Source: an uncultured Clostridia bacterium (GTDB lineage Bacteria; Bacillota; Clostridia; TANB77; CAG-508). Taken from it: a stretch of 64,000 nucleotides of DNA. Below are positions 8,148-14,799 of this stretch, in pieces. The notes below the pieces were generated by a model that saw only the letters and a program-made list of their open reading frames with translations, ran no database searches and was not told where the DNA came from. Within the stretch, counting starts at the first letter, position 1. Every line of letters begins with the position of its first letter. The stretch lies in contig CAKOWP010000002.1 of assembly GCA_934122385.1 (NCBI GenBank), positions 610-64,609 on the forward strand. The letters are read 5' to 3'. The position numbers and the translations under genes are program-made.

Positions 8148-9101
8148 TTATCTTTTAAAATTAAATCTATAATAATACGGTTTTATATCATTCAATAGTA
8201 CGTCCATATATACCATGTTTCCATAGCAGTCTTGAACCTTTAAATTTGGAAAAGTTCTTAGCATTTTCTTGTCTCCCCAATATTTATAAATAAAATTAGA
8301 TAATTTTTTATCATTATAAATATCATCATATTTTTGCATAATTATTTCCTTGTTTGGTACATTTAAATCATAATTATGTACCATTCTTACTAAAAAGAAT
8401 GATAACGCTATTCCTGTTGCAATACAATCAACAAGTAGAAATATTGTAACTGTCGTTGTAAGTACCTTCAAAGCTTTAACAGAAAGTTTGCTTTTTATCC
8501 AATTTATTAGTCTGTCTATTCTAGGATTAAATGATGCAATTAGGTATAATGCTAAAAATCCCCAAAATATTGAGAAATAAACACATATTCTTCCATTAAT
8601 ATTAAGTGGCATGTCTGAATAGTCCCACCATTTTACACCTAATAGTATCTCACCTATCCAGCTAACTAGATATTCAACAATTGAACCAACTATAAAACCT
8701 CCAATGAATAGTCGTGTATAGTTTTTTGAATATTTATGTAAGAAAATAATCATTATTGCTGCACCTAGTCCATATATCGCACAAAATGGTCCATATAAAA
8801 AGCTCTGTCTGCTCTCCCATGTTCCCTTAGTTATTATTCCAAATATTGTTTCTATTATATATCCTACTACACTATATATTATGAAGTATGCCAATATTCT
8901 CCATACTGACAAACCCATAATTGTAAATTTTTTCTTTTGATTTGTAGCTTTAGTATTTGTTTGCTCCAATTTATTATCTATTTCCGCTTCTTTATTGCTT
9001 TTTTTTACTGTGTTTTTTATTTCAGCTTCTTTACTGCCTTTTTCAACTTTATTTTTTATTTCATTTTCTTTCATAATATATTTTTCACTCATTTCATTCA
9101 T
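8148..9101 (-). CDS. Polytopic membrane protein (putative ABC-transporter type IV / CmpB-like family) with a K/E-rich N-terminus
   Basis: About 7 TM segments with a YSVVGYIIETIFG-type first helix. The N-terminal 60 aa is lysine/glutamate-rich with an internal repeat. Confidence 0.6.
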   Translation of the reverse strand: MNEMSEKYIMKENEIKNKVEKGSKEAEIKNTVKKSNKEAEIDNKLEQTNTKATNQKKKFTIMGLSVWRILAYFIIYSVVGYIIETIFGIITKGTWESRQSFLYGPFCAIYGLGAAIMIIFLHKYSKNYTRLFIGGFIVGSIVEYLVSWIGEILLGVKWWDYSDMPLNINGRICVYFSIFWGFLALYLIASFNPRIDRLINWIKSKLSVKALKVLTTTVTIFLLVDCIATGIALSFFLVRMVHNYDLNVPNKEIIMQKYDDIYNDKKLSNFIYKYWGDKKMLRTFPNLKVQDCYGNMVYMDVLLNDIKPYYYRFNFKR

Positions 9102-10917: not shown

Positions 10918-10995
10918 TTTTATCATCCTTTCTTTTGCATTTTATGTTTAAATTGTATCACATTATTAATTTGTTTGCTAGATTTATTTTATAAA

Positions 10996-11478
10996 TTATT
11001 CTTTTCCTTCTAATAAAACATTTCTCATTTTTATTATGTTATAAAAAGGTATACTGAATCCCTGTTCCGCTAATCCAACTACCCTAAGAGATGTGACAAT
11101 AACATTCTTTTGTTCTTTAGTAGGTATTTTTACATCCATATTTGAATTCATATATTTATTTTCTATATATTTTTCTGTAGTAGGAAATATATTTTGAATT
11201 AAGAATACCGCTTTTTTTCCTAAAACTTCACCAAAAACAAAATTATATACCGGATTTTTAGGATATTTTTGTTTTTTATTTTCATATATCTTTTTATACT
11301 TTTCATACTTTGTAGAAATTGGAACAAACCATATTATTTCTTTATATTTTCTATCTTTAAAACAAAAATAGCAAGGTCTTTTATTTCCATTTTCTTTGTT
11401 TACCATTAAACCATATTCTTTAAAAACATCAAAAAATTCATCCTTTATAAAATAAAATTTTCCATCTTCTATTACCAT
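10996..11478 (-). CDS. ToxN/AbiQ/CptN-like type III toxin (endoribonuclease) candidate
   Basis: 160 aa. The N-terminus KFYFIKDEFF and the segment IWFVPISTK resemble ToxN/AbiQ. It is preceded by AGGAGGA, a terminator and tandem repeats. Confidence 0.7.
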   Translation of the reverse strand: MVIEDGKFYFIKDEFFDVFKEYGLMVNKENGNKRPCYFCFKDRKYKEIIWFVPISTKYEKYKKIYENKKQKYPKNPVYNFVFGEVLGKKAVFLIQNIFPTTEKYIENKYMNSNMDVKIPTKEQKNVIVTSLRVVGLAEQGFSIPFYNIIKMRNVLLEGKE

Positions 11479-11496
11479 AATATTTTGTCTCCTCCT

Positions 11497-11529
11497 ATAA
11501 AAATATGGGATCTATGATTATAGACCCCA
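11497..11529 (-). terminator. Intrinsic terminator between the repeat array and the toxin ORF
   Basis: The minus strand reads TGGGGTCTAT-aatc-ATAGATCCCA followed by TATTTTTAT. Confidence 0.65.
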
Positions 11530-11641
11530 CATTTAACTATAATTAACATTTTTTCACCTGCACATTTATATCTCGCAAGCAGGGTTGCGGCTCACATTTT
11601 CTCACCTATAAATTTATATTTCGCAAATAGGGTTGCGGTTA
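11530..11641 (-). ncRNA. Candidate type III antitoxin RNA: 2 full 48-nt direct repeats plus a partial third
   Basis: Units 11594-11641 and 11546-11593 are 39/48 identical, and 11530-11545 is a partial unit. Each unit starts AAAATGT on the minus strand and carries CGCAA-N6-TTGCG. Confidence 0.7.
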
Positions 11642-11649
11642 ACATTTTA

Positions 11650-11658
11650 ATTATAGCA
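11650..11658 (-). promoter_or_regulatory. Extended -10 promoter element TGcTATAAT driving the repeat array
   Basis: Minus-strand TGCTATAAT lies immediately upstream of the first repeat. The -35 is weak. Confidence 0.5.
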
Positions 11659-11879
11659 GATATTAAATATCTACTACTAGTATATTCATTATAACCTTTT
11701 TTATTTCAAAATGTCAATAGTTTTTCAGAAAAAATAATAAAATTTTACCTAAAGCGTCCATTTGTGTTTTTTATTATCTATTTAAAATATTAATTTTATA
11801 ATTTTTAAATTATCACAACAAAATAAATTCTAATTTCATATAATATATAAATGTCGAATGAAAGGAGGTTTTGTAAATT

Positions 11880-12490: not shown

Positions 12491-14459
12491 TTAATCTTTG
12501 CCTAATATATATGGATCTGTCTCTGTTCCAGAGCCACCTGCTATATATACTCCATCATTCATTGTAACAACTGGACGGATGCCCAAACAATCATTCTTTT
12601 CATAGTCAATACTACCTTCTTTAGTCACACAATGCTCACCGTGGTTGCCAGCTAGAACCACTTGGGTCAGCAAGCCAATAATATGTCCCTATGTTTCTTA
12701 TCCTCTTATCAGTTATTTTTCTTGCTTCAGTAGCATCCATTATGTGTATATCACTTATATATCCTTTTTTATCTAAATTTTTATCTTTATAGATACTCCA
12801 ATCTCTTGGTTGGTATGTACTATAACCTGTATATCTCTTTCCACTTGATAATATATATGTTACTCTTCTATTGTCCCAATCTTTTGTAAAATAATATACA
12901 AAATTCTCTGGACTTCCTGCATGTGTTATTTTTGTTACATATGTTTTTCCATTTTCTTCTTTACTTTCTAATATTTGCCATCCTGAATATTTTGGTGTTC
13001 CATATCCGCTTTGTGGTGTTACACTTTGGTTTCTACTTGTGATTATATTTCCACTTGCTATATCACTCGCATTTGTTGTATCTCCTTCATATGTAAATCC
13101 TCCAAATGTAAAGTTTAGTCCTGCTGTATTACTTGCTGTCTTTGATTTATTTATATTATATAAACTCTTACTTTGCAATGCTTGTATTTCTTCTCGTGTC
13201 CAGTTTCCTGCATCATATTGCACAAATGCACCTTGTATAAAATATTGATTTACTGTTATTTCCTTATCTTCACTTATTGTCTTGCCGTTATATGTTCCGC
13301 TTACTTTAAATGTATAATTTCCATTTGTCGTTACTTGATATGGTACTTCCTTTGAATTATCTATTTTTAAAACAACTTTGCAACTGTTTCCTTCTAACGT
13401 TGCTATTATATTTATATACAATGGAGTGCCTCTTTCTATTGTATTTGCTTTTTCTGAATTTGTAGCAGTTGAGCTGTTACTTTTGCCTACTGCTATAGCT
13501 GTATATTGTATTTCTAATTTTTTTGTTGTTACCGTTATATTTATATCTCCTGTAACTTTTTCTATTTTAATTTTTCCTGTATTAATATCAACCACATTAT
13601 TTCCAGATGTAGTTACTGTTTGGCCTCCCATTGTAACAGTTAATCCTGTTATTGCATAATTTCCTTCTGTTGATACTGTTGCCTCATATGTTTTGTTATA
13701 TGCTGCTTTTGTTACATTATTATCTATTACTGCATTTTCTGCTAATGTTTTTGTTACATTATAATAATAATCATCTATTTTTATAATTTTTTCTGTTTTA
13801 TTTCCGTCTCCTGTTGTTATAACAAATTTATATTCTTTTCCAAGCTCTACTATATAATCAATTCCTACTGGATCTTTTCTGCTTTGCATTATTAGTGACT
13901 TTTCACTTGGATCTGGGTAATCTACCTGATTTATTCCATTAACCTTATCTGTTATTTCTATCAGTATCTGTACTTTTCCATTTTCTATTTTTTTAGTTTT
14001 ATATTCAAATTCTAATGTACTTACATTATATTCTGTTTTGCTTATTTCTAAGTTTTGATTAATTAAAAACTTTCCTGTAACATCGCTTTTTTTCATTCTA
14101 ACTAATTTTCCGTCTATCGATTCATCTTCTTTTATAGTTGGACTATAATCACTTGAAACTACTGTATTTATCCAGTCTTGTGTTACATCATCTAAACTCG
14201 CATTTTCTTTTTTGTCTAATTGCAATTCATTTAATGCTAGTGTTAATTGTTCCTGCATTTCTGATTGCACATGTGCTTTTTTTGCTTGCTTTACTCTCGC
14301 AAATAAACCATTTTCTCCACCTAATGTTGCTATTGCTATTCCTGATAATATTAATAAAATAACAATAGTTACTACTAACGATACCAATGTTATTCCAACA
14401 TCAGCTTTTCGATTTTTTATTGCGTAACTTTTTTTCATTTGTTTTCTCCTTTTTTTCAT
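12491..14459 (-). pseudogene. Large pilin-like (class III signal peptide-like) surface protein, frameshifted near its 3' end
   Basis: N-terminus KADVG-ITLVSLVVTIVILLILSG is prepilin-like. Ig-like beta-rich repeats follow. The reading frame breaks at about 12636-12673 and the C-terminal 60 aa (LGIRPVV...DPYIL) continue in another frame. Confidence 0.6.
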
Positions 14460-14470
14460 TTGTTTTCTCC
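14429..14470 (-). repeat. Perfect 21-bp tandem duplication containing SD plus ATG
   Basis: GGAGAAAACAAATGAAAAAAA occurs twice on the minus strand, in frame (7 codons). Confidence 0.9.
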
Positions 14471-14484
14471 TTTTTTTATTTTTA

Positions 14485-14550
14485 TACTCCAAATGGAGTA
14501 TAAAAGAATAATACACCATATGGGGTAAAAAGTCAACACCAAATGGAGTA
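14485..14550. promoter_or_regulatory. Three copies of the palindromic operator-like motif ACWCCAWATGGRGTA
   Basis: TACTCCAAATGGAGTA (14485-14500), ACACCATATGGGGTA (14512-14526) and CACCAAATGGAGTA (14537-14550). They lie in the divergent intergenic region next to the XRE gene. Confidence 0.45.
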
Positions 14551-14580
14551 TTTTATATAATAATGTAAGGAGTGAGAAAA

Positions 14581-14799
14581 ATGTTGAGATTAAAGGATTT
14601 AAGAGAAGATTATGAACTAACACAAGCTGAATGTGCCAAAATTGGTTATATATCTAAAAATTCATACATTAGATATGAAAAAGAAGAAAGAATCATACCA
14701 TTAGATACCCTAATTTACTATGCAAAATATTATAATACTTCATTAGATTATTTAGCAGGACTAACAAACATATCAAAACCATATCAAAGAAAAAAGTAA
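14581..14799 (+). CDS. XRE-family helix-turn-helix transcriptional regulator
   Basis: LTQAECAKIGYISKNSYIRYEKEER is a Cro/C1-type HTH. AAGGAG lies 8 nt upstream of the ATG at 14581. Confidence 0.85.
   Translation: MLRLKDLREDYELTQAECAKIGYISKNSYIRYEKEERIIPLDTLIYYAKYYNTSLDYLAGLTNISKPYQRKK

Follow-up and report, generated by a model that had tools for sequence, protein, structure and literature searches.

A probably functional CptIN-family type III toxin–antitoxin cassette between pepF and dpaB of an uncultured Clostridia bacterium

A minus-strand locus in a 64,000-nucleotide stretch of DNA from an uncultured Clostridia bacterium (positions 610 to 64,609 of contig CAKOWP010000002.1, assembly GCA_934122385.1; hereafter the window, G+C content 26.6%) raises the question of which toxin–antitoxin (TA) family it belongs to, and what role such a module could play where it stands. 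From 11717 down to 10996, the locus consists of a promoter, a leader hairpin, two tandem repeats with a partial third, a terminator, a ribosome-binding site (RBS) and a 160-amino-acid (aa) open reading frame (ORF) (Table 1; all coordinates are positions in the window). A sequence-only reading had described it as a type III TA module of ToxIN/CptIN-like type, with promoter, repeats, terminator and endoribonuclease toxin in that order, and had suggested a distinct subfamily. The core of that description was right, and CptIN is the correct family. With high confidence, the locus represents an entire type III TA cassette of the CptIN family that probably works, function being assigned by homology of both protein and RNA; it is an ordinary new member of this known family.

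The ORF product exceeds the 90-bit cutoff of the NCBIfam equivalog model for the type III toxin-antitoxin system CptIN family toxin (NF047359), scoring 153.5 bits (E=3.4e-45), and the match spans residues 6–154 of the ORF and positions 1–149 of the 150 in the model. CptN of Eubacterium rectale (CptN_Er; 4RMO, chain 4RMO_A) is its sole significant sequence match in the PDB (E=1.1e-19), at an identity of about 27–30%. The same chain is the best structural match of an AlphaFold2 model of the ORF (mean predicted local distance difference test 77.8, predicted template modelling score 0.76), with template modelling (TM) scores of 0.77/0.79, a root-mean-square deviation of 3.0 Å and E=7e-9, versus TM scores of 0.59–0.61 to ToxN (2XD0, 7D8O) and about 0.4 to MazF/Kid toxins. 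Similarity to a type III toxin fold is thus confirmed via 4RMO. The resemblance of the N-terminus to ToxN/AbiQ, also proposed from the letters, holds at the level of the fold superfamily and fails at the level of sequence: a Pfam scan of the ORF found no family above cutoff and no ToxN, the only hit being DUF1132 at 16.7 bits versus 25.

Residues kept across the family point to a putative active site. A full HMMER scan gave a CptN family of 913 clusters (50% identity) at E<=0.001 and 430 at E<=1e-10. Among 32 diverse family members, P35, W50, S55, K60 and Q95 are invariant, and all five are kept in the window CptN; alignment position 57 is K, R or Q, with K the commonest. In the account of Rao (2015; PMC4627078), the active site of CptN_Er has a Ser-Ser/Thr-Arg motif and Tyr104, and Asp81 and Ser85 specify the scissile adenine. 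S55-T56-K57 and Y109 of the window CptN align to the S-S-R stretch and Y104 of CptN_Er, the triad being tentatively placed at S51-S52-R53 from the alignment. The putative catalytic motif would consist of S55-T56-K57 plus K60, Q95 and Y109.

The repeat array agrees with the protein. Tandem Repeats Finder (TRF) reports a 48-nt period in 2.2 copies (82% matches, score 147) at 11544–11648, and this array, CptI, is the sole intergenic tandem array with a score of at least 80 in the window, the other two sitting in coding repeats. The two full units are 39/48 identical and differ at 9/48 positions, and CGCAA-N6-TTGCG is found in both. The repeat register is arbitrary; the units were set at 11647–11600 and 11599–11552, with the partial third from 11551. 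All the elements listed in the sequence-only reading (TGcTATAAT, the 39/48-identical 48-nt repeats, CGCAA-N6-TTGCG, terminator, RBS and 160-aa ORF) are present on the minus strand. Table 2 of Blower et al. (2012; PMC3401426) covers 33 cptIN loci with repeats of 40–48 nt (mean 44.8) in 1.9–3.4 copies (mean 2.4) and toxins of 45–213 aa; the present locus, with its 160-aa toxin and 48 nt in 2.2 copies, agrees with all of these ranges. Toxin sequence, toxin fold, repeat array, terminator, promoter and, in secondary structure, the RNA pseudoknot, all of them features named for CptIN, were found here; in the criteria of Blower et al. (2012; PMC3401426), a promoter upstream of the repeats is preferred, not strict.

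A scan of a genome collection yielded 80 related loci, all from uncultured low-GC gut Clostridia, with CptN 59–84% identical. Exactly two full units of 44–49 nt plus a partial third lie upstream of the toxin gene in 80/80 loci, one of which is cut at a contig end; because the same layout recurs throughout, the arrangement of the module is not a product of chance. All relatives share DNA homology with the window from about 11725, just 5' of the −35 element, as far as the cptN stop codon.

Pairing and covariation indicate that the repeats form H-type pseudoknots, each having a one-nucleotide loop 1 (L1) and an A-rich loop 2 (L2). In repeat 1, stem 1 (S1) pairs 11637–11633 with 11626–11622 (CGCAA/UUGCG), L1 is C11632, stem 2 (S2) pairs 11631–11627 with 11609–11605 (CCUAU/AUAGG), and L2 is 11621–11610 (AAAUAUAAAUUU). 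Repeat 2 adopts the same fold, with L2 AGAUAUAAAUGU and an S2 of CCUGC/GCAGG that is compensatory relative to repeat 1. The model (S1 of 5 bp, L1 of 1 nt, S2 of 5 bp, L2 of 12 nt) was examined in 54 distinct units aligned from the related loci. Standard pairs occupy 95.1% of cells, versus 29–47% when the 3' partners are slid by 1–3 columns, and two-sided changes occur at 8/11 pairs. These include a change of S1 from CGCAA/UUGCG to CGGAG/CUCCG, and changes of S2 from CCUAU/AUAGG to CCUGC/GCAGG, CCUAC/GUAGG, CCUGU/ACAGG or GUCAC/GUGA. The observed pairing values were reached by 0/500 shuffles, a control that overstates significance because the unit sequences are related; the slid controls and the compensation between repeats 1 and 2 within a locus are free of this weakness. 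The covariance and fold analysis of the 48-nt unit thus supports a pseudoknot, the potential for which the sequence-only reading had raised.

The RNA also matches CptI of E. rectale (CptI_Er). According to Rao (2015; PMC4627078), S1 and S2 of CptI_Er are coaxial, L1 is one base, and the long A-rich L2 makes an A-minor twist. The 45-nt CptI_Er was rebuilt from the primer published there (AAGUUUACCACUGACCGAUAUGUGGUAUAUAAAUGGUCGGGUUGA), and numbering it in this form accounts for all the residues that the paper names. The L2 of CptI_Er, AUAUAAAUG, is found again in L2 of both window repeats, the common motif being AUAUAAAU(G). The 3' end ...UGA is shared by CptI_Er and the window units, and the columns matching A29, A31, A32 and U34 of CptI_Er are invariant or nearly so in the clade.

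A few observations tell against a simple transfer from E. rectale to this locus. The third residue of the putative catalytic motif is Lys in the window CptN and Arg in CptN_Er. In the 4RMO alignment, equivalents of Asp81 and Ser85 are not obviously conserved, and cleavage specificity may therefore differ from that of E. rectale. Adjacent pseudoknots are joined by 15 single-stranded nt, versus 9 nt in CptI_Er, so that the cut site cannot be carried over by analogy. Neither PADLOC nor Pfam has a match to the protein, and Rfam (E<=10) has none in the repeat region. These empty results reflect the coverage of the libraries and are not contrary evidence. They might also be read, as might the mere 81% identity of two repeats whose published cptI counterparts are described as near-identical (PMC12283969), as signs of a new type III subfamily apart from ToxIN, CptIN and TenpIN and defined by its 48-nt repeat. 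This proposal of the sequence-only reading, founded on a 48-nt unit in about 2.3 copies, is unsupported because repeat length and copy number, like toxin length, fall within the published CptIN ranges. Furthermore, the protein scores far above the cutoff of the CptIN equivalog, the nearest sequence and the nearest fold are both those of CptN (4RMO), and the RNA topology and L2 motif are common to CptI_Er; a separate subfamily is largely refuted and very improbable. Non-identical repeats would likewise fit a decayed, non-functional remnant, and several truncated cptN genes are described by Blower et al. (2012; PMC3401426). However, the ORF here is not truncated and its alignment to the family model runs from end to end, all invariant residues are retained, the differences between the two S2 stems are compensatory, promoter, RBS and terminator are intact, and a 99%-identical copy was found in other samples, all of which makes decay highly improbable. 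A CptIN cassette that is probably functional remains the reading of choice.

Table 1. Features of the CptIN cassette in the 64-kb window (all on the minus strand)
Feature	Position	Strand	Evidence
Whole block, favoured as an insertion	10986..11801	minus	Alignment of occupied versus empty pepF–dpaB sites
Probable promoter, TTGACA-N18-TATAAT	11688..11717 (−35, 11717–11712; −10, 11693–11688)	minus	12/12 match to sigma-70-type consensus
5' leader stem-loop, GUAGUAGAUAU-UUA-AUAUCUGCUAU, 11 bp with two G.U	11653..11677	minus	Minimum-free-energy (MFE) fold
CptI repeat 1 (48 nt)	11600..11647	minus	TRF, unit alignment, pseudoknot pair counts
CptI repeat 2 (48 nt)	11552..11599	minus	Unit alignment, pair counts; type conserved separately from repeat 1
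Partial third repeat, AAAUGUUAAUUAUAG	11536..11551	minus	Sequence; kept in relatives
Intrinsic terminator between array and cptN	11498..11529	minus	10–14-bp stem then AUAUUUUUA, −17.2 kcal/mol
RBS, AGGAGGAG	11489..11496	minus	10 nt 5' of ATG, by sequence
cptN, 160-aa predicted CptN-family endoribonuclease toxin	10996..11478	minus	NCBIfam, 4RMO, AlphaFold2 fold, invariant residues

The divergence between the two repeats is a property of the whole clade. Mean identity between repeats 1 and 2 of one locus is 76% (67–87.5%), and between loci repeat 1 units are 81% and repeat 2 units 86% identical. In 160/160 cases, the closest counterpart of a unit in any other locus belongs to its own type; therefore, the duplication predates the clade and the copies have not been homogenised. 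The two repeats are two separately conserved types without concerted evolution, as the unit alignments indicate. In the window, compensatory changes in S2 account for 4/9 of the differences between them.

The promoter is probably not the one first proposed. The extended −10 element named in the sequence-only reading, TGCTATAAT at 11658–11650, adjoins repeat 1; its TATAAT is absent in 28/79 relatives, and TG is carried in only 22. In contrast, 78/79 relatives have a distal TTGAnn-N17/18-TATAAT, which precedes repeat 1 by 40–45 nt. The proximal element, judged by this conservation, is thus probably not the main promoter, and transcription is predicted to start near 11681, downstream of the distal one. 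The TGC of the proximal element is supplied by the 3' arm of the leader hairpin, which is found in all relatives except locus L075, its stem being kept with different sequences in two clades. The mean folding energy of the hairpin is −9.5 kcal/mol on the sense strand versus −6.9 on the antisense strand, and G.U pairs occur in 28/38 unique leaders. Covariation of the stem between clades, its greater stability on the sense strand and its G.U pairs suggest that the leader acts at the RNA level. It may be a 5'-proximal stabiliser of the antitoxin precursor; a role as an operator or in processing or regulation is an alternative. In the portions of the CptIN literature consulted, no mention of a conserved 5' leader hairpin was found.

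Between the array and cptN, the terminator hairpin is TGGGGTCTAT-aatc-ATAGATCCCA followed by TATTTTTA; a simple pattern scan did not list it. A hairpin with a T-run lies between array and toxin gene in 18/18 relatives inspected, and the stem sequence differs in the second clade. Terminators in the relatives were judged from the sequences, and an automated T-run test (0/81) was discarded since in the MFE fold the U-run is base-paired to A's lying 5' of it. Beyond the cptN stop codon no terminator can be recognised, which makes read-through from cptN into pepF possible. The pepF gene apparently has its own extended −10 element, TGaTACAAT (10940–10960, minus strand), about 30 nt upstream of its RBS.

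These elements can be placed in the established type III scheme, which is transferred here by protein and RNA homology and from which toxicity, self-processing, cut site, stoichiometry and terminator leakiness would follow as predictions. Transcription from the sigma-A-type promoter would yield an RNA with a protective or regulatory 5' stem-loop, the two CptI repeats and the partial third. Most transcripts would stop at the terminator and a minority would read through into cptN, keeping antitoxin RNA in excess of toxin mRNA. CptN, a Kid/MazF-fold endoribonuclease expected to be metal-independent, would cleave the precursor in its single-stranded junctions. The junction motif AAAUGU is invariant, with GGUGA or GGUGGA before it, and the partial third repeat supplies this motif 3' of repeat 2. 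Each freed unit of about 48 nt would then form the pseudoknot with S1 CGCAA/UUGCG, one-base L1, S2 and the A-rich L2 containing AUAUAAAU. On the model of E. rectale CptIN, two pseudoknots and two toxin monomers would join in an inactive 2:2 ring. If transcription were halted or the locus lost, the RNA would decay before the protein, and free CptN would cut cellular or phage RNA and arrest growth.

The position of the cassette bears on its role. A 9-bp direct repeat, ATTTTATAA on the plus strand, lies at 10986–10994 and 11793–11801, flanking 798 bp, with a repeat-to-repeat period of 807 bp. A metagenome scan with DpaB gave both states of the pepF–dpaB site: locus L081 is occupied like that of the window, with a 99%-identical CptN, and in L134 (3354–3501) and L135 (1109–1256), where PepF is 92–95% and DpaB 97–99% identical to the window, pepF and dpaB are 146 bp apart with a single ATTTTATAA. 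The same pattern would be left by a deletion between two copies of the 9-mer present by chance; given the many other sites at which the cassette is found, an entry into the pepF–dpaB region as an insertion of about 0.8 kb (807 bp relative to the empty site) is favoured. No terminal inverted repeats were found at the ends of the insertion. The idea that the pepF–dpaB gap is a hotspot for the cassette was rejected, the extra DNA in L084 and L085 being spoIIID. This gene (Pfam SpoIIID, E=1e-29; L084:3091-3357) occupies the gap in these more distant relatives and looks truncated or altered in L082:1858-2175; the lineage of the window and L134/L135 lack it at this site.

In about 29–35 of the 80 related loci, the gene just downstream of cptN encodes a large serine recombinase with Resolvase, Recombinase and Zn_ribbon_recom domains, which is 88–93% identical between loci (L001:4620-6191, L009, L043, L046, L053, L074 and about 25 more). 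An upstream segment, cptIN and the recombinase make up a homology block of about 3 kb with sharp ends on both sides and a variable spacer, which suggests, from these boundaries, a small integrative element with cptIN as cargo. Direct repeats of 12–14 nt flank the cassette in 7/77 other loci (L013, L023/L025, L031, L042, L050 and L079), against a null rate of 0.9%, and their sequences and distances differ between loci. The repeat in L042 includes the −35 region, and a partial duplication of the cassette may be involved there. Flanking repeats of at least 8 nt in other loci are uninformative because their null rate is 54% in AT-rich DNA.

In the window, the cassette stands by itself between pepF and dpaB, as the sequence-only reading had noted; the adjacent genes encode an oligoendopeptidase F (M3) and a protein of the flavoprotein family, the latter consistent with dpaB. 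No homologue of the recombinase of the relatives was found anywhere in the 64 kb, and no defence genes were found among the genes beside the cassette. In none of the 80 relatives does cptIN adjoin pepF, and a dpaB lies nearby in L064 only.

The biological role could be the stabilisation of mobile DNA or defence against phages. It seems quite possible, though short of probable, that the chief role of CptIN is addiction, or the stabilisation of DNA that is mobile or dispensable. CptIN_Er is reported to raise plasmid retention from about 50% to 100%, many relatives carry cptIN with the large serine recombinase in the sharply bounded block of about 3 kb, and a search of a plasmid collection found distant CptN homologues on plasmids. 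The latter were only seven, 31–42% identical and all annotated as hypothetical proteins (NZ_CP075965.1, NZ_CP075963.1, NZ_CP048628.1 and four others, from Clostridium perfringens, Megamonas, Oscillibacter and others), and Blower et al. (2012; PMC3401426) found no cptIN on plasmids. On the other hand, the cassette is solo here, with no recombinase homologue and amid housekeeping or sporulation genes, so that it has nothing obvious to stabilise but itself. An abortive-infection role in phage defence, as for ToxIN, AbiQ and TenpIN, appears rather doubtful, even though ToxIN and TenpIN are described as aborting phage infection (Blower et al., 2012; PMC3401426) and the cassette, like many defence genes, is horizontally mobile at variable sites. 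A protein search of 50,697 phage records found no homologue, the genes beside the cassette include no defence gene, and the frequent linkage to the serine recombinase fits addiction instead. Published CptIN loci proved toxic in E. coli, could be rescued and gave no phage protection, and no CptIN is known to abort phage infection; the abortive-infection label of the sequence-only reading is thus unsupported.

A more specific proposal, speculative and unlikely as a whole, would unite the particular features of the clade. The two repeat types, kept apart in 80 or more species-level genomes, would form a two-component antitoxin, with one of each in every 2:2 ring or with their divergence guarding against mispairing, the leader hairpin would serve as a 5' stabiliser, and the cassette would move without a recombinase of its own as a unit of about 0.75–0.8 kb that leaves 9-bp repeats, possibly mobilised in trans by the serine recombinase found with it in roughly a third to half of the relatives.

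Farther from the cassette, the window encodes a 627-aa protein whose N-terminus is pilin-like, together with an HTH_3 protein and an AMP-binding enzyme; defence genes are likewise absent among these. The 627-aa ORF (12636–14519, minus strand) has no Pfam match, and its N-terminus resembles a prepilin-type signal with a hydrophobic segment; a tandem KKRRKQM coding repeat (14428–14481, 21-nt period, 2.6 copies) comes before these, and a divergent 75-aa HTH_3 regulator (14572–14799) adjoins the ORF. On the other side, a 39-nt tandem coding repeat (8972–9071, 2.6 copies) encodes a repeated KxxKEAEIxN motif, which is situated at the N-terminus of an ABC_trans_CmpB-family membrane protein (ORF 8148–9101, minus strand).

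As a family assignment, this locus adds little: CptIN was defined in 2012, its crystal structure dates from 2015, and NCBIfam now has a curated model for it. Such loci are nevertheless easily missed: the RNA antitoxin has no Rfam family, and at least one deposited toxin relative (MEE0865704.1) is labelled a hypothetical protein. The forecast that automated annotation would use this label holds for that relative, and the curated NCBIfam model would now name the protein. The 80 loci and 54 distinct units provide covariation support for the CptI pseudoknot beyond a single crystal structure and reveal invariant nucleotides in L2 and the junctions. The diverged repeats, the leader hairpin and the pair of empty and occupied sites are modest additions to what is known of how type III cassettes are expressed and spread.

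Among known systems, ToxIN (Pectobacterium atrosepticum, Bacillus thuringiensis and E. coli) and AbiQ/antiQ would share with this locus the type III logic, in which a self-processed repeat RNA inhibits a Kid/MazF-like endoribonuclease and a terminator sets the ratio of RNA to toxin, and they share the fold superfamily. The differences are that the window toxin has no sequence-level match to this group, that ToxI units are described as 34–36 nt long, in more copies and in 3:3 triangular complexes (Rao, 2015; PMC4627078), and that the abortive-infection phenotype is proven for ToxIN and not for CptIN. TenpIN (Photorhabdus luminescens) belongs to another toxin family, the window protein passing the CptIN equivalog and having CptN as its best structure, yet it shares few, long and often non-identical repeats with A-rich stretches, for which A-minor contacts have been proposed (PMC12283969).

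The closest counterpart is CptIN of E. rectale (4RMO; PMC4627078), within the cptIN family (PMC3401426). The low protein identity sets the two apart, as do a unit of 48 nt versus 45, an L2 of 12 nt versus 9 and a linker of 15 nt versus 9, the S-T-K motif in place of S-S-R, and the lack of conservation of Asp81/Ser85. Unlike the cptI arrays described, the repeats here are of diverged types, and a conserved 5' leader hairpin distinguishes the clade from CptIN as portrayed in the reports consulted. In common are the toxin family and fold; the order of promoter, about two tandem repeats, terminator and toxin, with repeat length and copy number in the family range; an H-type pseudoknot with a one-base L1, a long A-rich L2 containing AUAUAAAU(G) and a unit ending in ...UGA; and a chromosomal location in a gut Firmicute.

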